Positions 9,694 through 54,257 are shown, counted from the stretch's first letter. The stretch is 64,000 bases of DNA from an uncultured Gammaproteobacteria bacterium (GCA_964360965.1 CAYHYM010000001.1:8878-72877), one strand, 5' to 3'. Translations and numbers: made by a program. Notes: generated from the letters alone by a model not told the origin.

Positions 9694-10320
9694 TCACCGC
9701 AGTTGTATAGTTGTTTCAAATCTTACAGGATCAATCTGTCCAGCCACAGAGGGAAGAGCATTAACCGCCGGGGAAAGAGTAAAGTTAATTTTTACCCCAT
9801 CCTTAAACCCGGCTGACCGCTCTCTGGCAAAACTACCATTTATGGAAACTCCGCTTTGAGGATTTGTATCAGTTAAAACTAAAGCAGCCGGCATCGGATT
9901 ATCGCTTGTGCAAACTCTGTTAACAAAAACTGTATCTGTTTCTTCTTTACCGGTGGCTGGATCTAATTGTTTGACTGGATTATCTTGTTGGATTAAACCA
10001 TTGCTATTGGGAGCTGAAGGGGTAAAAGGAATAAATCTGTAGCGGGTATAGATGCCTTTACTGACTACTACCAAATTAGGGGAGGAGGCAGTGGTAGCAG
10101 GAGAAATAATCGCCGGACAAACTATATGATCTGCATTTCTAATCACACTGGTCATACTTTCCAAAACTGATTGCCCATTTTGTTTAATGGCAATTAAAAT
10201 TTGTGATTTGTTATTTCCCCGCAAACTGCCGGAGAATATAGCCAGCACTAAAACTCCCGCAATAGATAAAACCCCTATCACCACCAAAACTTCTGCTAAG
10301 GTAAAACCTCCCTTTTTCAT
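9694..10320 (-). CDS. minor type IV pilin
   Basis: MKKGGFTLAEVLVVIGVLSIAGVLV prepilin motif. Confidence 0.7.
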   Translation of the reverse strand: MKKGGFTLAEVLVVIGVLSIAGVLVLAIFSGSLRGNNKSQILIAIKQNGQSVLESMTSVIRNADHIVCPAIISPATTASSPNLVVVSKGIYTRYRFIPFTPSAPNSNGLIQQDNPVKQLDPATGKEETDTVFVNRVCTSDNPMPAALVLTDTNPQSGVSINGSFARERSAGFKDGVKINFTLSPAVNALPSVAGQIDPVRFETTIQLR

Positions 10321-10805
10321 ATTTTCCTCAAGATTGTGGTTAATCTGGACTCATGAGGACCGGAAACATCTGTCCAGGTTACCACCACCGTGATTTTCTT
10401 TTGATCCACTGCTGTATCTTCAATAAAAAACTGTCTTCTGAATCCTGCAGCAATAGTTTCTGAGTTAGCCGCAGTTGCATTTGTTAATACCCCAGATGCG
10501 TTAAAAAAGAAGTAGCAGCTACCTACAGGACAACTGGATTGGGTAGCAGGACAAGTGGGTGGAACGCTGGAACTACAGGCAGTAGAACTGGACCAAATTC
10601 CCGTTCCAGTGGTATCCCTATCTCTTAAACCTCTGACTTTCTCCAATCCCTGTTGTGCCAATTTTGTGGCCTGGGCTTGATTTTGAGAAAAGCTGGCATT
10701 TCGCAACGATGCAATAGTGGCAAAGGTTAAAGCAGCCACTACAATTATAATTACTGCAATCACCACCACCAATTCCATTAAACTCTGACCTTTTTCACTG
10801 AACAT
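10317..10805 (-). CDS. type IV pilin-like protein
   Basis: KGQSLMELVVVIAVIIIVVAAL prepilin-like N-terminus (Q instead of F at +1). Confidence 0.65.
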   Translation of the reverse strand: MFSEKGQSLMELVVVIAVIIIVVAALTFATIASLRNASFSQNQAQATKLAQQGLEKVRGLRDRDTTGTGIWSSSTACSSSVPPTCPATQSSCPVGSCYFFFNASGVLTNATAANSETIAAGFRRQFFIEDTAVDQKKITVVVTWTDVSGPHESRLTTILRKI

Positions 10806-11361
10806 CTATGGCTCCTCCTTGGGATATTGTAAAGCATGCTTTAGCATCATTTTTCTGATTCCTTAGTACTATCATCAAGGTTGAAGCGCTGGTAATACAA
10901 GAATCCCCACCGGCAAAACCCACATTCCCATTCAGAGCAGTAAAGTTCACAGTTAAAGGAGGGGGGAAGGTTGAACCATCCGGAGGGCAACTTGCATTAG
11001 GAACAGGTGAACATTGGATTGAAACTACCTCTGCACCTTCAAGAGTTTGTACTTTTTGTTCAGATTCTAGGGTTCCACAGGTTAATGATAGCTTAAGCTT
11101 ATTCCCATCAAACTTAACTGACCAAGGAACACCGCCTTGATTATTACATAGGACTCCGGCCGTGGCATTGGCTTGAGCCAGCCTTAAATAGGTCTGAATT
11201 TGACCAACAGCTTTGTTTAAAACCTGATCCTGGGTAAAATTCTTAAAGTTGGCAAAAACTACAATTCCCACCAGGGCAGTAATGGTAATCACCACCAAAA
11301 GTTCAACAAGGGTGAACCCGCTTCGACCTCGAAGCGAGGCGAGACCACGGACAGTTTGCAT
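10795..11361 (-). CDS. type IV pilin / pseudopilin (GspG-like)
   Basis: RSGFTLVELLVVITITALVGIVVFANF prepilin motif. Confidence 0.7.
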   Translation of the reverse strand: MQTVRGLASLRGRSGFTLVELLVVITITALVGIVVFANFKNFTQDQVLNKAVGQIQTYLRLAQANATAGVLCNNQGGVPWSVKFDGNKLKLSLTCGTLESEQKVQTLEGAEVVSIQCSPVPNASCPPDGSTFPPPLTVNFTALNGNVGFAGGDSCITSASTLMIVLRNQKNDAKACFTISQGGAIDVQ

Positions 11362-11406
11362 AATTTAAACGTACCATATTTCCTGGGCAACTACCAACTG
11401 GATTAC

Positions 11407-11423
11407 CCACACCCGGTGTGTAC
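11407..11423. repeat. REP-like near-palindrome CCACACCCGGTGTGTAC 3' of the RAYT gene
   Basis: ACACC/GGTGT arms around CGG. The same core recurs at 12138-12151 and 12161-12183. Confidence 0.6.
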
Positions 11424-11441
11424 AAGGTAGACACATCGGGG

Positions 11442-12119
11442 TTATTCTGCAATAAGATGTTTTATTTGATCTAATTTCCTCTGATAATCCATCTGGTCAA
11501 ATGTAAATTTTTTAAACTGATTCAATGAACGAAAATAGGCCAATAAGAACTTTTTATCCACAATGATATTCAATTTTTGTTTACCGAGGTATTCTGAAAA
11601 AGAGCACCATGGATAATTTTCCAACTCTTCAGGCTTTTTAATGATATAAGCAGTTAGGGGATTAAGATGAATGTAACGAGCTACATGAACTAATTGCTCA
11701 TCAGTCTCAATTCTAACTGCCTTAAATCTTGATTGGAAAAGTGACCCATTTCTATCATTTTTAGTATTAAAATATTTTGCATAGCTATTTTGAAAGTTTC
11801 TTGTAAAAGTGGTTATTCCGCCACTATTTATCTCCTTAATTAAAAAATGAATGTGATTTGGCATTAAACAATAAGCTAAAACTTGTATCAATCTTTTGCC
11901 AGTTTGCTCTAAACTTTTTAAAAACTTCGTCTTTTGGTCTTCAGCTAATCGATTAAAATGAGAGTAACGTAAAGTTAGTTTTTCAAATGTGTAAAAATAG
12001 AGTGTTTGAAGTGCTCTCTGATAATCCCTTTCATTGATAAAGATTGGCAGACGTGCCACACTCCGGTTGAAAATATGATAGATTTCACCTTCAACAATCG
12101 GTACTTTGCGGTAGGGCAT
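11442..12119 (-). CDS. REP-associated tyrosine transposase (RAYT, IS200/IS605-like Y1 HuH transposase)
   Basis: HuH motif LMPNHIHFLIK. Catalytic Tyr region ARYIHLNPL...YPWCSFSEY. 225 aa; a paralog lies at 41180-41848. Confidence 0.8.
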   Translation of the reverse strand: MPYRKVPIVEGEIYHIFNRSVARLPIFINERDYQRALQTLYFYTFEKLTLRYSHFNRLAEDQKTKFLKSLEQTGKRLIQVLAYCLMPNHIHFLIKEINSGGITTFTRNFQNSYAKYFNTKNDRNGSLFQSRFKAVRIETDEQLVHVARYIHLNPLTAYIIKKPEELENYPWCSFSEYLGKQKLNIIVDKKFLLAYFRSLNQFKKFTFDQMDYQRKLDQIKHLIAE

Positions 12120-12137
12120 TATTCCAGATTACGCTGT

Positions 12138-12183
12138 ACACCCCGGGGTGTCAAGCTACCACACACCCGGTGTAGATATCTAC
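12138..12183. repeat. REP-like palindromes 5' of the RAYT gene (ACACCCCGGGGTGT perfect 14-bp palindrome; ACACACCCGGTGTAGATATCTAC)
   Basis: Perfect palindrome at 12138-12151. A second ACACC/GGTGT unit follows, with a GTAGATATCTAC palindrome. Confidence 0.65.
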
Positions 12184-12680
12184 GGTCTGGTAAGCCCGTA
12201 GTTGAGGCGATTATCAGGGGGTGAGCTGCAGACTGGATCACTGACCTGACCGGCCCCTTTATTTTCTAATCTGGTGTACAAACAATAACAGATACAACCG
12301 GCAGGGTTAACTGCACTGCAGCTGCCACCTGGTTTACAATCTAATGTGCCAAAAGCCACGTAAGTATAATCCGGCTGGGGAACAGAATCATTAGGCACCC
12401 TGGTTAAATAGACAAACTTTTTACCGGCTGCATTAGTATAAGACAACTCACTGTCTGGTATAACACTAAAAGGGTAAAACTTTTGGTCAGCATGGTATTG
12501 TTGCAAACCGCTTTGGATGAATTTTAAATCTGACAGTCTTTTGCTATCTCTGGAGGCCTTATAAACTGCCTGATAAGTGGAAAAACCAAGCGCAGTTAAA
12601 ATGGCAATAATTGAGATGGCAATCAACAGTTCCACCAAGGTGAAACCTTTTTTAGAATTATCTATCCGGGGATGCTTCAT
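12180..12680 (-). CDS. type IV pilin (PilA-like)
   Basis: KKGFTLVELLIAISIIAILTALGFS prepilin motif. Internal ATG start chosen. Confidence 0.7.
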   Translation of the reverse strand: MKHPRIDNSKKGFTLVELLIAISIIAILTALGFSTYQAVYKASRDSKRLSDLKFIQSGLQQYHADQKFYPFSVIPDSELSYTNAAGKKFVYLTRVPNDSVPQPDYTYVAFGTLDCKPGGSCSAVNPAGCICYCLYTRLENKGAGQVSDPVCSSPPDNRLNYGLTRP

Positions 12681-13287
12681 AAATTTGATTTGAATAAGAG
12701 CCTCCAAAAGCTGCACACCAAATATCTGAAGCAGTAGACCTTAATGATGAATTGTATTTCCAGTTTTTAAGTCCGCATCTTTCAGAATCATTGGTATTTT
12801 CCAGCTGTGCTGTCAGGTCATAAGTTTGACCATCAGCAGTAACATTTCCATAAGTATAGGAATAATTTCCACCAACCCAAGGACCATTGGCATTATTGAT
12901 AGGGTCAATTGGTAGCCTGGGAGTAATACCACCATTGACTAAAGCAGGAATCCAACCCTCTCCTGTAGTACTGTAGACATAACAATTGGATCCGTAAGCA
13001 CAACTACCAGCAGTGGGATACTTACCAGCACCAGCACGATAAGCCTCCAAATAGGTATTGATTTTATTAAGATCAGCTTTTCTTTTAGCATCTCTGGCAT
13101 TTTTTTGAACACCTGAGTAGGCAGCTATACCTATCACAGAAAGAATACCAAGAATGGTAATAACAACCAGCAATTCAACCAGGGTGAAACCCTTCGACTC
13201 ACTATGCTCGCTCAGGGCAAGGCCACGTTTATCCTGAGCAAACCTGTACTGAGCGGAGTCGAAGTAGTCGAAGGAGGCAGATTTCAT
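12658..13287 (-). CDS. type IV pilin (PilA-like) with N-terminal extension derived from a palindromic repeat element
   Basis: SKGFTLVELLVVITILGILSVIGIAAYSGVQKNARDAKRKADL. The 32-aa leader MKSASFDYFDSAQYRFAQ... is encoded by the repeat at 13190-13274. Confidence 0.7.
   Translation of the reverse strand: MKSASFDYFDSAQYRFAQDKRGLALSEHSESKGFTLVELLVVITILGILSVIGIAAYSGVQKNARDAKRKADLNKINTYLEAYRAGAGKYPTAGSCAYGSNCYVYSTTGEGWIPALVNGGITPRLPIDPINNANGPWVGGNYSYTYGNVTADGQTYDLTAQLENTNDSERCGLKNWKYNSSLRSTASDIWCAAFGGSYSNQIYEASPDR
13190..13274. repeat. GTCGAAG/CTCAGTAC-family palindromic element (inverted CCTTCGACT ... AGTCGAAGG arms) embedded in-frame in the pilin 5' end
   Basis: Reverse complement matches 54391-54435 and 62450-62495 (GGTTCGAyTACTTCG...CTCAGTACAGGTAC). 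Confidence 0.6.
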
Positions 13288-13310
13288 ATTCTTGTTTAAT
13301 TATAACATAA

Positions 13311-13874
13311 TTAATCATCACTGGTAATTACATAAGCATTATCCCAGCCTGGTCCGGTTATAGCTGCCCCATTACAATCTTTGACTAATCTTAAGCCGTT
13401 ACGATTAGCATCATTTTTATTTTCCAAAAGAGCCACTAAAATAAAAAATTGTCCTTTTTTCGCAGCACAAAGCGCACTATGGTAACCTCTGTAGCCATAG
13501 TAGTAGCCTGTTTCTAAATTATTCCAGACCGTACCTGGTCCGCTGTTAAGAGGGTCTGTGGGCATCCGGCTGATATAACTACTATCCAAATTTTTCTGGG
13601 TGTCTGTACAACCTGCAAAATCCTCATCAGTAATCCAACTACCACCACTGGCAGAAGATTTCCAGACATTATCACCGGGACAAGGATAGCGGTTATTTTT
13701 TTGATAATACAACTCTAGAGCCACCTTTACAGCTCTTAAATCATCTTTTCTTTTAGCATCCCGGGCATTTTTTTGAACACCGGAGTAGGCAGTCAAACCC
13801 ACCACTGATAAAATAGCCAAAATAGTGATAACAACTAAAAGTTCAACGAGGGTGAAACCGGATCTTGGCCGCAT
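13311..13874 (-). CDS. type IV pilin (PilA-like paralog)
   Basis: RSGFTLVELLVVITILAILSVVGLTAYSGVQKNARDAKRKDDL. Confidence 0.75.
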   Translation of the reverse strand: MRPRSGFTLVELLVVITILAILSVVGLTAYSGVQKNARDAKRKDDLRAVKVALELYYQKNNRYPCPGDNVWKSSASGGSWITDEDFAGCTDTQKNLDSSYISRMPTDPLNSGPGTVWNNLETGYYYGYRGYHSALCAAKKGQFFILVALLENKNDANRNGLRLVKDCNGAAITGPGWDNAYVITSDD

Positions 13875-18075: not shown

Positions 18076-19788
18076 TTAATCCTGTGCGACTCTTAGCACC
18101 TCTTCCATGGTGGTAATTCCTTCCAAAACCTTTAAATATCCATCCTGTTTCATGGTGACCATGCCATCCTCAACACCCTGGCGTTCAATGTCTTGTGAGG
18201 AGGCATGCTCCAAAATTTTCCGGGAAATTTTTTCTGTTACCAGCAGCACTTCAAAAATACCGATTCTGCCCAGATATCCCATCTGAGCGCAATCTTGACA
18301 GCCTTGCGTTTTATAAAGTTTGATCTGACCATTTTTGGGCAGCAAGTTTCCCAAAACAGCTTTGATATTTTCCCAAACCTCAGGAGGAGCATCATATAAA
18401 ACTTTACATTTGGGACAAAGTTTTCTGACCACTCGTTGCCCCATCACTGCATTTAGGGCTGATGCCAAAAGAAACGGCTCCACCCCCATATCCAACAGCC
18501 TGGGAGCTGCGCCTGAAGAGGAATTGGTATGAACTGTGGAAAAAACCTGATGGCCGGTCAAGGCTGCCTGGATGGCCAGTTCAGCAGTTTCTGTATCTCT
18601 GATCTCACCCACCATCATTATATTGGGATCCTGACGCAAAAATGAACGCAGGGCTGAGGCAAAAGTTAAGCCTATTTGGGGATTGACCTGAACCTGATTA
18701 ACTCCGGGAATTTCATACTCAACCGGATCTTCAATGGTTAGGATATTAACTTTGGTGGTGGAAACTTTGGTCAGGATGGAGTAGAGGGTGGTGGTTTTGC
18801 CTGAACCTGTTGGTCCGCAGATTAAGATGATGCCATGAGGGCGAAGCAGCTGGGACCCTAAATTATTCAAAGACGAACCCCTCAGCCCCAGCTCCAGCAG
18901 GGTGGGGGCGCCTCCTGATTTAGGCAGTAGCCTCATCACCACTTTTTCCCCAAAAATGGTCGGCACTGTGGAGATACGTAGGTCAACTTCCTTCCCTTGA
19001 TAATCAAAAGAGAACCTGCCATCCTGCGGCAGCCTTTTTTCATCAATTTTTAAAACAGCCAGAATTTTAACCCTGGAGATCAGGGCATCATGTACCCCTT
19101 TGGGCAGAATTATTTTTTCCGACAGCACACCGTCAATTCTATAGCGGACCCGGGTTTTGTCTTCCTGTGGTTCAATATGGATGTCGGAAGCGCGGGTTTT
19201 GATGGCATATTCTAAAAGTTGATTGATGATATTGGCCACAGGCGCCTCGCGGATCACCTCAGGCGCCTCTTGAGCTTCCTCTTGCGGTTTAACCGAGGCC
19301 ACCTCTTTTAGGGCAGATGTCACCTCGGTAGTTAAACTTTGGGCATACTGGTTGGAAATGGCCTTTAAAATATCTGAAGTTAAGCCCAAAAAAGGCCTGA
19401 TCCTCATGCCTGATTTTTTCTCAATAAATTGGATCACCTGTATATCTAAAGGGTCTGCCATGGCCACCAGCAGTTGCCCATCTTTTTGGTCAAAAGCGAT
19501 CAGGATATAGCGGCGGGCCACTGCCTCAGGGATTAAATTTAGGATATTGGAAGCAATGGCCTGATCTTCCAGTAAGATATAGGGAACATTTAAAATTTGA
19601 GCTTTGGCCTGGGTTAGTTTATCAACAGGCACAAAATTATGTTCAAGAATTATTTTTTCGCTATTTTGGCCGGTGTTGATGCTTTCCAGCTTAATGGAAG
19701 AGAGTTGATCAGGAGTCAGAAGCCCCTGTTTAAATAGGATGTCCTCAATTAAAACATTATTTGATGAAGACTGGGCAGCCTGATCCAT
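18076..19788 (-). CDS. pilB: type IV pilus assembly ATPase PilB (GspE family)
   Basis: N-terminal GspII-like domain, Walker A GPTGSGKTTT, tetracysteine CPKC...CQDC. Confidence 0.85.
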   Translation of the reverse strand: MDQAAQSSSNNVLIEDILFKQGLLTPDQLSSIKLESINTGQNSEKIILEHNFVPVDKLTQAKAQILNVPYILLEDQAIASNILNLIPEAVARRYILIAFDQKDGQLLVAMADPLDIQVIQFIEKKSGMRIRPFLGLTSDILKAISNQYAQSLTTEVTSALKEVASVKPQEEAQEAPEVIREAPVANIINQLLEYAIKTRASDIHIEPQEDKTRVRYRIDGVLSEKIILPKGVHDALISRVKILAVLKIDEKRLPQDGRFSFDYQGKEVDLRISTVPTIFGEKVVMRLLPKSGGAPTLLELGLRGSSLNNLGSQLLRPHGIILICGPTGSGKTTTLYSILTKVSTTKVNILTIEDPVEYEIPGVNQVQVNPQIGLTFASALRSFLRQDPNIMMVGEIRDTETAELAIQAALTGHQVFSTVHTNSSSGAAPRLLDMGVEPFLLASALNAVMGQRVVRKLCPKCKVLYDAPPEVWENIKAVLGNLLPKNGQIKLYKTQGCQDCAQMGYLGRIGIFEVLLVTEKISRKILEHASSQDIERQGVEDGMVTMKQDGYLKVLEGITTMEEVLRVAQD

Positions 19789-30806: not shown

Positions 30807-31109
30807 TCAACTGCCGAAGTCAAGGGCGGGCAGTTGAATTAAAGTCGCACCGGGTGAGGGGGAAGGTGATGGACTAACTTGTGCTGACGGAGAAGAGGAG
30901 GGGGCTGTTTCCTTGGTAATTTTTAATTTTACATTAGAGTTGGTAGTTTCTGTGATGACCTGACCTGTATCATTCACAAATTCCACCTTGGGGATAAAGG
31001 CTGCCCGAGGCCTAAAAATTTGGGTCTGACGTACCAAATACAAAGTAGCCGGAATAGCCACCAAGATAATTACAAAGCCTATTAAAATTAATGTTTGTCT
31101 TTTAGTCAT
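30807..31109 (-). CDS. truncated 5' paralog (100 aa) of the 31143-32411 gene; leader plus Pro-Ser linker only
   Basis: First 67 aa nearly identical to the next gene. Contains a 76-nt tract 100% identical to 32215-32291. Confidence 0.4.
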   Translation of the reverse strand: MTKRQTLILIGFVIILVAIPATLYLVRQTQIFRPRAAFIPKVEFVNDTGQVITETTNSNVKLKITKETAPSSSPSAQVSPSPSPSPGATLIQLPALDFGS

Positions 31110-41101: not shown

Positions 41102-41143
41102 AACAGTTTTCCAATTCTAACACAGCCATTCATTAGTAGTTTA

Positions 41144-41159
41144 GACACCTGGGGGGTGG
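41144..41159. repeat. REP-like element GACACCTGGGGGGTGG 3' of RAYT-2 (inverted partner at 41889-41904)
   Basis: The 14-mer ACACCTGGGGGGTG occurs here and as a reverse complement at 41889-41904. The pair brackets only the RAYT gene. Confidence 0.65.
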
Positions 41160-41179
41160 ATTAGGCAGGCATGTAGGGA

Positions 41180-41848
41180 TTATTCCAAAATAAGATGTTC
41201 AATCAGTTTTAATTTTCTTTGATAGTCAGCTTGATCAAATACAAAATGTTTATATTTTTCCCTGCTTCCAAACATATCCAACACTAAATTTGGTTCTAAA
41301 AAACCATCATTACCAGTAAGATAATTTGAAAAGGATGACCACGGATACTTTTCTAATTCACCAACAGTTCTAACTATAAAATTTGTATAAGGATTTAGGT
41401 GTATATATCTTGAAACATGAATAAACTGTTCATCAGTCTCTATCCTCTTGGCTTTAAATTGATCTAAAAATAAGGAGCCGTCCCGTTCATTCCTGGTATT
41501 ATGATAACGAGTATAACTATTTTGGAAATTACCTATAAATTTTGAAATACCATCCTCCATTTTCTGCTTTAACAAGAAATGAAAATGATTGGGCATTAAA
41601 CAAAAACAAATAATATCAACTAATTTTTCTGCCTGGTTCGTAATTTTGGTAATCTCTTTTTGTTTATCTTGTTCCAACTCCAAAAATTTAGATAATCTAA
41701 TAGGTGGGCTTGAAACTCTATAAAATTCAATTGCCAAAATTGCCCTTTGGTATTCTTTTTTTGTGGTAAAGGTGGGTTGCTTATTTATACCTCTGTTGTA
41801 AACATGGTAGATCTCATCCGTTACAAGTGGAATTTTTCTACCTGGCAT
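41180..41848 (-). CDS. REP-associated tyrosine transposase (RAYT) paralog
   Basis: HuH motif LMPNHFHFLLK. Tyr region SRYIHLNPYTNFIV...YPWSSFSNY. About 50% identical to the 11442 copy. Confidence 0.8.
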   Translation of the reverse strand: MPGRKIPLVTDEIYHVYNRGINKQPTFTTKKEYQRAILAIEFYRVSSPPIRLSKFLELEQDKQKEITKITNQAEKLVDIICFCLMPNHFHFLLKQKMEDGISKFIGNFQNSYTRYHNTRNERDGSLFLDQFKAKRIETDEQFIHVSRYIHLNPYTNFIVRTVGELEKYPWSSFSNYLTGNDGFLEPNLVLDMFGSREKYKHFVFDQADYQRKLKLIEHLILE

Positions 41849-41870
41849 AAAGTCATAATAGATTAATTAT

Positions 41871-41930
41871 CCCTGGGTGTCAACCTGAGACACCCCCCAG
41901 GTGTTTATAGGTGTTTATACAGGTGTTTAT
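41871..41930. repeat. REP-like hairpin (GGGTGTC aacctga GACACCC) plus three tandem AGGTGTTTAT decamers 5' of RAYT-2
   Basis: Seen directly: CCCTGGGTGTCAACCTGAGACACCCCCCAGGTGTTTATAGGTGTTTATACAGGTGTTTAT. Confidence 0.7.
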
Positions 41931-42518
41931 ATCCACTGAATGGACACTCTCCGGATTCCCTATAACCATTTTGATATCGGCAGGTAGTTCAATCTCATGA
42001 TGGTAAAATCCATCAACCACGCTTTTACCAATTTTCATACTAATAGGAGTTTTATAGTCTCTAATAATGGGAACCCCCACGTTGTCTCCTTCTCTAAAAA
42101 AGCTTCTCCACTCTGGTTTACCGACGTCAGCAGGATAAAAATATTTGAACCTTGCCTTAGCTGCTTCAACATCTACCTGACAATCTGAATCAAAAGTCAT
42201 ACCATTAACACTTACTCTAAGTTTTAATTCAGATAAACACTGGGTTAACTGCATAAACCATGGTTCAGACACTACAGCTTTTAAATTTATATCAGGCCAA
42301 TCCCAACCGTCTTTATTGTGATCTTCTCCAAATCTTACTGATATCAATGCCTGTCTTGAAGGTAACTCCACCTGTCTCACTTCTCCGTTAAATTCCCCGT
42401 CAAAAATATACTTTTTAAGTTGAAAAGCATGAACAACAGAATCACCTGACTGGTAAACTAATCTTCCATTAGTAAAAGGTTCAAATTGTTGATCAAATTT
42501 TCTAGTTTCAATATCCAT
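41880..42518 (-). CDS. hypothetical protein
   Basis: 212-aa ORF. No recognisable domain. Confidence 0.35.
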   Translation of the reverse strand: MDIETRKFDQQFEPFTNGRLVYQSGDSVVHAFQLKKYIFDGEFNGEVRQVELPSRQALISVRFGEDHNKDGWDWPDINLKAVVSEPWFMQLTQCLSELKLRVSVNGMTFDSDCQVDVEAAKARFKYFYPADVGKPEWRSFFREGDNVGVPIIRDYKTPISMKIGKSVVDGFYHHEIELPADIKMVIGNPESVHSVDINTCINTYKHLGGVSG

Positions 42519-53832: not shown

Positions 53833-54128
53833 ACACCCTCCTGTCATCCTGAACCCGCCACAGGCGGGTGAAGGATCTAATCTTTGGATTTTAGCATAAA
53901 CTTCCTTCCTATGTCATCCCGACGAATGTCGGGATCCATAAATAATGTGTTTAGTTGGATTCTCCTCGAGTCTGAGCGACCTCGGAGTCGAAGACCTGCA
54001 TTTGCAGGAATGACAGAAGAAAATCCTTAATTCCCTCTCTATCTCTTTTTAACCATTCCACATTGGAATGAACAAGTTTTCTCTTTCTTACCACGATCGG
54101 AGGATATTTGGTATAATTATTTTTTAGG

Positions 54129-54174
54129 CCGAGGTGTTTACACCGAGCTTGCCGAGGTGTTTACACCGAGCTTG
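54129..54174 (+). repeat. two tandem 23-bp copies of GCCGAGGTGTTTACACCGAGCTT immediately 5' of tRNA-Leu, duplicating the tRNA 5' nine bases
   Basis: Units at 54129-54151 and 54152-54174, with the tRNA beginning GCCGAGGTG at 54175. Each unit holds a GGTGT-TT-ACACC inverted repeat. Confidence 0.75.
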
Positions 54175-54257
54175 CCGAGGTGCTGGAATGGTAGACAGGC
54201 CAGTCTCAAAAACTGGTGATGGCAACATCATGAGGGTTCGACTCCCTCCCTCGGTAC
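54175..54257 (+). tRNA. tRNA-Leu (anticodon CAA), class II with long variable arm, no encoded CCA
   Basis: Hand-folded. Acceptor GCCGAGG/CCTCGGT, D arm CTGG-AATGGTAGA-CAG, anticodon stem CCAGT/ACTGG with loop CTCAAAA, 15-nt variable arm, T arm GAGGG-TTCGACT-CCCTC. Close to E. coli tRNA-Leu in architecture. Confidence 0.85.

Follow-up and report, generated by a model that had tools for sequence, protein, structure and literature searches.

In the systems known as REPtrons, the gene of a RAYT, a tyrosine transposase associated with repetitive extragenic palindromes (REPs), is flanked by such palindromes, as described for E. coli TnpA-REP (RayT/YafM, structure 4ER8) with its flanking REPs or bacterial interspersed mosaic elements (BIMEs) (Ton-Hoang 2012 PMC3333891; Messing 2012 PMC3479197; Corneloup 2021 PMC8266576). 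Low copy number, vertical inheritance and housekeeping-like evolution are traits of RAYTs (Bertels 2017), and the palindrome changes with the protein lineage, a pattern of RAYT-REP co-evolution (Nunvar, PMC2817692). In TIRtrons, the RAYT-like (TIRYT) gene lies within terminal inverted repeats (TIRs) (Di Nocera 2013 PMC3733652); these probably correspond to subclass 2.1 of Quentin 2018 (PMC6006769). RAYTs without genome-wide REPs, and REPtrons in species without REP families, have already been reported (PMC2817692, PMC3733652). TnpA-Y1 genes outside insertion sequences (ISs) are enriched in large genomes according to a 2018 survey (PMC6006769), which, by a term search, mentions neither Parcubacteria nor Microgenomates; within the searchable literature library, RAYTs of Patescibacteria were not found treated beyond a passing KEGG annotation. 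Here, we analyse a RAYT-like gene at 41180-41848 and its flanks in a stretch of 64,000 nucleotides (CAYHYM010000001.1:8878-72877; 40.5% G+C; hereafter the window), which is the search space in the source genome. The locus is a RAYT-like cassette, inherited vertically, whose cognate ends are palindromic and which has a promoter built in; it is real and non-random, and no repeat population was detected in the sampled DNA. The interval 41145-41904 is probably best described as a compact, chromosomally resident cassette of REPtron/TIRtron type, neither a plain IS nor a system that spreads REP doublets (REPINs).

The gene lies on the minus strand, measures 669 bp including the stop codon, and was identified from its open reading frame (ORF) and from the match of its 222-residue product to Pfam Y1_Tnp (PF01797; E=5.7e-9, 36.6 bits, above the gathering cut-off of 23 bits). 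The HUH motif is H88-F-H90 and the catalytic tyrosine is Y148 in RYIHLNP. Across 15 aligned family members, H88, H90, Y148, N152 and P153 are unchanged, as is the H-x-N-P that follows the tyrosine. The tyrosine region reads Y148-IHLNP-YTNF, and after N152-P153 the family has Y/L/H-T-x-Y/F, the RAYT-specific motif beside the catalytic tyrosine being NP(L/V)(R/K)xG (Nunvar 2010, PMC2817692). The AlphaFold2 model of the protein (pLDDT 80.8) has 4ER8, E. coli TnpA-REP bound to a REP hairpin, as its top PDB fold match (E=7e-6, target-normalised TM 0.63), followed more weakly by ISDra2 and IS608 TnpA (2XO6, 2A6O; E about 6e-4 to 1e-2). PDB sequence searches were essentially negative (no match with the single protein, and only a marginal ISDra2 match with a profile, E=0.035), and the proposed kinship with 4ER8 rests on the predicted fold. 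The C-terminal 68 residues (155-222) have no Pfam match even at E up to 10. These results support a RAYT-like Y1/HUH protein as the product, that is, a predicted single-strand DNA nuclease/transposase, which would cleave DNA as its known relatives do.

The gene is enclosed by an inverted pair of ACACCTGGGGGGTG, exact at 41145-41158 (+) and 41891-41904 (-), and the window holds no other match at up to 2 mismatches (0.33 expected). The original prediction had recognised this 14-mer pair around the 669-bp gene, with a two-base slip in the start of the upstream copy (41889). The 14-mers lie at the core of an imperfect inverted repeat of 43 nt (41142-41184 and 41865-41907, 74% complementary). Read on the gene strand, the upstream full palindrome, ACACC-TGGGG-GGTGT (41890-41904, minus strand), forms the outer end of the cassette, and its 13-mer core is identical in three orthologous loci, L083, L084 and L087 (the prefix L denotes fetched loci). 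The downstream full palindrome, CCACC-CCCCA-GGTGT (41145-41159, minus strand), is inverted relative to the upstream one, begins about 20 nt past the stop codon and is invariant in the same three loci. It is joined to the gene by a linker with an inner half-site (41160-41179, minus strand), which is AGGTG in the orthologs and has here decayed to ACATG (41170-41174). The downstream end mirrors the upstream one in the order half-site (AGGTG), about 10 nt, full palindrome, and each end, about 40 nt long, combines a full palindrome (CACC-loop-GGTG) on the outside with a half-site on the inside. All 4 matches to ACACC-N0-10-GGTGT in the window flank this gene or its paralog at 11442-12119, where 0.34 were expected and 0 of 100 shuffles reached 4. 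The hairpin GGGTGTC-aacctga-GACACCC, also part of the original prediction, lies at 41875-41895 and represents an alternative fold, in which the inner arm A' of the palindrome pairs with the arm copy at the -35 box described below; the minimum free energy structure lengthens it to CCTGGGTGTC / GACACCCCCCAGG with a 3-nt bulge, and by folding energy it is not more stable than shuffled sequence (z = -0.6).

Homologs of the protein number more than 7,400 at E up to 1e-5; those carrying a source name belong to lineages of the Candidate Phyla Radiation (CPR), namely Daviesbacteria, Levybacteria, Gottesmanbacteria and other Patescibacteria, and identical copies of the 222-residue protein are found on Hainich groundwater metagenome contigs. 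The homologous loci comprised 80 from species-representative genomes, 69 from metagenomes and 3 orthologs obtained by exact protein look-up; L083 belongs to CP066688.1 and L012 to CP011210.1, both of them complete relatives. Flanking repeats are a trait of the family: when the 150-nt upstream and downstream flanks of 84 genes in the species-representative set, mostly from Patescibacteria (CPR), were compared, 65 of the genes had a shared repeat that scored beyond the 99th percentile of controls with mismatched flanks. The best orientation of the repeat was inverted in 24 and direct in 41 of these 65, the orientation being often ambiguous because many of the repeats are themselves palindromic. 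The palindrome varies by lineage, with examples such as CCACCTCTAAGGTGG, CAAACCTGGTTTG, AACCTGGGAGGTT and AAGGTCCGACCTT. In all orthologs of 72-79% identity, CACCTGGGGGGTG occurs as an inverted pair on the two sides of the gene, about 55 nt ahead of the ATG and about 22 nt past the stop codon, and over all fetched loci this sequence (up to 1 mismatch) nearly always occurs as inverted pairs around orthologs. In the ortholog alignments, the conserved block is bounded by the outer edges of the two palindromes. These findings support the inverted palindromes as the cognate ends of the RAYT-like gene.

The position of the cassette is also conserved. The 79% and 75% orthologs lie directly upstream of ruvC-DUF5656, and ruvC and DUF5656 follow immediately downstream of the 72% ortholog (L087). 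The gene order hypothetical gene (variable)-RAYT-ruvC-DUF5656 is kept in the 75-79% orthologs, and yebC and the variable gene stand upstream in the window, L083 and L087. The 67% ortholog is found in the same neighbourhood, two genes away. The RAYT-like protein is 67-79% identical to these orthologs, compared with 66-90% for RuvC, 56-59% for YebC and 59-68% for DUF5656. Judged from these identities, the cassette diverges no faster than ruvC and at about the rate of its neighbours, and it probably does not behave as a jumping element in this lineage. The synteny, and a divergence comparable to that of ruvC, yebC and DUF5656, agree with the RAYT traits listed above (Bertels 2017).

A promoter is built into the 5' end of the cassette. 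The promoter scan placed the -35 hexamer TTGACA within TTGACACC (41876-41883, minus strand), which is invariant in the orthologs, and there the hexamer overlaps a third copy of the left arm of the palindrome (ACACC); the -10 box TATTAT (41855-41860, minus strand) ends 6 nt before the ATG. The arrangement of TTGACA (41883-41878), a 17-nt spacer, TATTAT (41860-41855), 6 nt and ATG matches 11 of 12 positions of the sigma-70 consensus. Since the 5' inner half-site doubles as the -35 box, the promoter is part of the cassette end. Similarly, 27 homologs match the promoter well, and in 21 of these the start codon follows the -10 box at a distance of 6-8 nt; such spacing suggests that the RAYT-like gene may have a leaderless or near-leaderless transcript. 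The upstream region of closer homologs has a common build: arm A, the loop and arm A' of the palindrome are followed by about 8 nt (with TAGC as a frequent ending), TTGACACC, 17 nt, TAnnnT, 6-8 nt and ATG. The third arm tracks the palindrome: AACC arms are accompanied by TTGTAACC or TTGAAACC, CAAAC arms by TTGACAAAC, CACAC arms by TTGACACA, and CCACCTCGG by ACACCTCGG. In a register-free permutation with 5000 shuffled pairings and with kinship among the loci uncorrected, the mean longest substring shared with the own region was 4.69, against 4.00 +/- 0.14 for shuffled pairings, and 0 of 5000 reached the observed value. A first test in fixed register was weak (P about 0.04-0.06), because the stem and loop boundaries shift among lineages.

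Two further observations concern transcription around the cassette. A conserved extended -10-like sequence, TGTGyTAGAAT (41111-41124, minus strand), ends 12 nt before the start codon of ruvC in the window and the orthologs, and ruvC seemingly has its own promoter just beyond the cassette edge. In L019, L022 and L024, the downstream end is a direct copy, about 42 nt long, of the whole upstream end including TTGACACC, and a second -35 box thus faces the next gene; a convincing -10 box was not found after it.

At 11404-12178, the window contains another cassette, which is built in the same way and is of ancient divergence. Its RAYT-like gene (11442-12119, minus strand) encodes 225 residues with 47.6% identity to the first protein, so that the diverged paralog of about 50% identity in the original prediction was correctly recognised, and it has a palindrome of its own. 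Its flanks carry ACACCCGGTGT at 11409-11419 and 12163-12173, and ACACCCCGGGGTGT at 12138-12151. The upstream end (12126-12174, minus strand) comprises ACACC-G-GGTGT (12162-12174), a TTGACA -35 hexamer (12149-12154) within the second palindrome ACACCCCGGGGTGT, and a TAATCT -10 box (12126-12131) 6 nt before the ATG; the downstream end (11404-11442, minus strand) comprises the half-site ATGTG, a linker and the palindrome CACACCGGGTGTG. The two ends form a 39-nt imperfect inverted repeat, the downstream end pairing with 12140-12178 at 74%. The arms are common to the two cassettes (ACACC/GGTGT), and the loop and spacing differ. The paralog is located within a run of type IV pilin-like genes (9694-13874) with GFTLVELLVV-type N-termini. 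Two diverged RAYT-like paralogs, 3-30 kb apart, are also present in each of L021, L023, L025 and L073, with an own palindrome for each paralog where this was checked (the window, L023 and L025); paired paralogs seem to be common in such small genomes.

Outside the upstream palindrome, the outer arm is iterated. The three decamers of the original prediction are present at 41899-41930: copies of AGGTGTTTAT occupy 41899-41908, 41909-41918 and 41921-41930, and on the gene strand the unit ATAAACACCT equals the outer arm plus 5 nt of flank. In the array as a whole (41898-41931), the innermost copy is the palindrome's own outer arm. The array is absent from the orthologs L083, L084 and L087, which have a single copy. 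Perfect tandem arrays including a palindrome arm occur beside other homologs (L029, L034, L070, L087, L091, L093-L095, L102, L116 and L117), and such arrays show an approximately 3-fold enrichment in RAYT flanks relative to the remaining non-ORF DNA of these loci (25 observed against 8.5 expected; Poisson P=3e-6). On the other hand, recurrence of an arm 6-mer within 40 nt outward showed no excess over the inverted control (12 vs 12 of 185 flanks). The three decamers are a recent, lineage-specific tandem iteration of the outer arm, and a similar change recurs at the ends in other lineages; the copies may be functional half-sites, or they may have arisen through cleavage and rejoining or through slippage induced by the hairpin. 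An array of 8 tandem 16-nt units with AGGTC-C-GACCT, BIME-like in appearance, stands about 170 nt downstream of a distant RAYT homolog (L141:5747-5877). The decamer array and the palindrome of the window also encode the final 16 residues of a 212-aa ORF (41880-42518, minus strand), the TGA stop of which lies inside the RAYT -35 box. This ORF, located between yebC and the RAYT-like gene, has no Pfam or NCBIfam match, and no homolog was found in the orthologous loci, where genes of 193 aa and 120 aa hold that position.

Compared with the REPtron of E. coli TnpA-REP, the cassette shares the Y1/HUH fold (its top structural match), a low-copy and vertically inherited gene, and cognate inverted flanking palindromes that co-evolve with the protein. 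It differs in that a GT[AG]G head is missing from the hairpin foot and the stems are short (4-5 bp) and perfect; in the window, neither GTAG nor GTGG is found 5' of the palindrome at either end, the arms being ACACC/GGTGT, and relatives with CCACC/GGTGG arms have GTGG within the 3' arm only. Amplification of the palindromes is not seen in the sampled DNA, and the end itself contains the promoter. The protein of 222 residues has a different helical C-terminal extension and scores under the NCBIfam equivalog cut-off, and the host genome, which belongs to the CPR, is small (about 1 Mb). With TIRtrons, the cassette shares a RAYT-like gene within terminal inverted repeats, some of which are doubly palindromic, genomic repeat families that are often absent or moderate, and the possibility of several different genes per genome, each with its own ends. 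However, most TIRYT repeats have GGGGWSAS, whereas the ends here are CACC/GGTG palindromes, which on direct reading show no match to GGGGWSAS and do contain TGGGGGGTG. In addition, most subclass 2.1 proteins carry a C-terminal helix-turn-helix domain (Bac_DnaA_C, HTH_23, HTH_28), unlike the C-terminal 68 residues here, which have no Pfam domain. Flanking palindromes that are not genome-wide are also known from RAYTs with REPs near the gene, in three marine gammaproteobacteria and Thauera (Nunvar 2010, PMC2817692); there, however, the gene is a recent acquisition and the REPs accumulate around it over as much as about 200 kb, whereas the gene here is old and syntenic, with essentially one palindrome set per end. 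The IS200/IS605 elements (IS608, ISDra2 TnpA) have in common with the cassette the catalytic superfamily, hairpin-bearing ends and a short element of about 0.7 kb. Unlike it, they are multicopy and mobile, their hairpins are subterminal, both on one strand and without inverted symmetry, and their TnpA has about 130-150 aa (PMC6006769, PMC2817692); here the ends are inverted, the site is fixed, the copies are diverged and the fold match is weaker.

Of the other explanations, the one that survives best is a classical REP/RAYT system, in which the flanking palindromes are members of a REP/REPIN population that the enzyme has spread through the genome, and no further copy happens to fall in the window. 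In its favour, several relatives (L012:3763, L008:11301, L059, two copies in L073, L039, L062 and L074) carry intergenic copies of their own palindrome, solo or paired, within a few kb of the gene, L141 has the 8-copy array beside the gene, and the window represents only about 6% of a genome of roughly 1 Mb, a size assumed from relatives. Against this, neither palindrome flavour was found away from its gene in the 64-kb window, where looser patterns gave only matches that do not have the end architecture, whereas the window does show dispersal of an unrelated 15-mer family, TTCGACTYCGCTCAG (8 matches vs 1.2 expected); the detection of this family indicates that the dispersal test had power. 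Among relatives, copies of the locus-specific repeat more than 250 nt from the gene were counted in 1.03 Mb of loci around 63 genes; just 18 were found, some of which belong to a second paralog, and CACCTGGGGGGTG forms almost exclusively gene-flanking pairs. Dispersed high-copy cognate REPs were thus found neither in the window nor in these loci, and we regard the classical system as unlikely. The suggestion of two co-resident REP/RAYT systems holds for the two RAYT-like genes with cognate palindromes and is not supported for dispersed REP families, with no extra copies in 64 kb.

Several candidates from the search of the window were rejected. Matches or near-matches to CACC-N3-8-GGTG at 18097, 22300, 30846, 35987, 46090, 53222, 62247 and 62488 are attributed to chance, as they have no end architecture; all lie in long ORFs except that at 30846, which is just outside an ORF. 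A possible third RAYT copy at the window start consisted of a weak tblastn match (1081-1125) in a NusB-like ORF and a palindrome at 449 in a RecG-like ORF, and is likewise ascribed to chance. As for TTCGACTYCGCTCAG, its sites are 13249, 22587, 39711, 42857 and 59329 (within 1 mismatch), and also 14899, 53972 and 62461. They are found at gene edges and within coding sequence, for example at the pilin-like N-terminus FDSAQ..FAQDK, and the 15-mer is iterated inside yebC, whose product has 286 aa here and 253 aa in the ortholog L083. This family is unrelated to the RAYT palindromes and may be the true dispersed repeat of the genome.

Another explanation is that the palindromes are ordinary transcription signals, with a promoter operator upstream and a terminator or RNA-stabilising hairpin after the stop, and that the protein no longer cuts them. 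Termination and mRNA stability are among the functions ascribed to REPs (PMC3733652); here, the upstream motif and the -35 box overlap, and the downstream palindrome lies about 20 nt past the stop codon. However, the promoter/terminator scan found no T-run terminator, and the upstream palindrome precedes the predicted transcription start and is therefore outside the gene's own RNA. Furthermore, the same palindrome occurs on both sides, inverted or direct, and changes in step with the protein lineage, and the catalytic HUH and Tyr residues are invariant. This explanation is accordingly quite improbable.

The gene lies between yebC and ruvC, neighbours in many bacteria; this position, the transposase-family gene within inverted ends, the two copies per window and the 67% ortholog two genes away, which implies relocation over long time scales, are what favour an autonomous IS200/IS605-type or TIR-bounded IS moving as a 760-bp unit, the alternative that the original prediction had named as its refutation, and this is the least probable explanation of all, because a site beside ruvC that is fixed in the 72-79% orthologs with the same ends, divergence at housekeeping rates and a mere 47.6% identity between the window copies, where near-identical copies or variable sites are typical of IS200/IS605, argue against an active insertion sequence, as do a fold nearer to TnpA-REP than to IS608/ISDra2 TnpA and the restriction of most homolog clusters to one or few contigs.

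A separate curiosity is the repeat upstream of tRNA-Leu (54174-54257), which had been linked to the RAYT recognition motif. This repeat (54128-54182) consists of 2.4 perfect copies of the 23-nt unit GCCGAGGTGTTTACACCGAGCTT and ranks first in the window by Tandem Repeats Finder score. The first nine bases of the tRNA-Leu itself (GCCGAGGTG) open every unit, and the two leader units are able to pair as a hairpin. GGTGTTTACACC is present twice before tRNA-Leu and absent from 155 of 155 loci, and a comparable leader was found at no other of 60 tRNAs in the fetched loci. The repeat and the decamers have only AGGTGTTTA in common. The link is not supported: it depends on GGTGT, a 5-mer with 98 occurrences in the window, and on a single common 9-mer, and 5% of random 86-nt segments have 9 nt or more in common with the RAYT upstream region.

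Returning to the reading of the locus as a resident cassette of REPtron/TIRtron type, several points weigh against it. On REP_Tyr_transpos (NF047646, an equivalog model with a cut-off of 80 bits), the 222-residue protein scores 50.8 bits and the paralog 58.4 bits, both under the cut-off, and the identity to 4ER8 is just 13% over the structural alignment. The hairpins are short, and 0 of 8 end strands fold significantly better than shuffles (z +0.2 to -2.0); because the fold energies match those of shuffles, the case for a function of the ends is made by conservation and not by energy. The third-arm statistic contains the uncorrected kinship noted above. The solo intergenic palindrome copies in some relatives are genuine and therefore indicate low-level spread in some lineages, and a low-copy dispersed family is possible, the search having covered 64 kb of the source genome. 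Finally, cleavage, the strand and hairpin form that would be recognised (palindrome or alternative) and autoregulation are all drawn by analogy.

The mechanism of the cassette may be outlined from TnpA-REP of E. coli, Stenotrophomonas and Marinomonas and from the biochemistry of IS608/ISDra2 TnpA. By this analogy, the palindromes would fold when the DNA is single-stranded, for example at the replication fork, and the protein would recognise its cognate hairpin and cut and rejoin DNA nearby via Y148. Since one arm copy is the -35 box, it is proposed that binding or hairpin extrusion may also modulate the gene's own transcription. A bolder and doubtful extension is that the CPR-wide family would represent a fully domesticated Y1/HUH enzyme, whose ends have turned into a self-contained control module, with a REP arm as the -35 box and a switch operated by extrusion or by the gene's own product. 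The enzyme would then process single-stranded DNA for the host and be kept beside the recombination gene ruvC in this clade, and the tandem iterations would be footprints of cutting and rejoining in situ, that is, REP arrays caught at birth.

RAYTs are the textbook example of a domesticated bacterial transposase, and the reason for their retention is debated between service to a REPIN population and service to the host. At the loci examined here, the gene is held at housekeeping rates and both hairpin ends are conserved, with almost no REP population to serve, and the hosts have some of the smallest and most streamlined bacterial genomes. Retention under these circumstances argues for selection on the gene together with its two ends. 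With this cassette, the role of a RAYT that does not spread repeats could be studied in a minimal setting, and the promoter made from a REP arm would provide a concrete and testable route of autoregulation.

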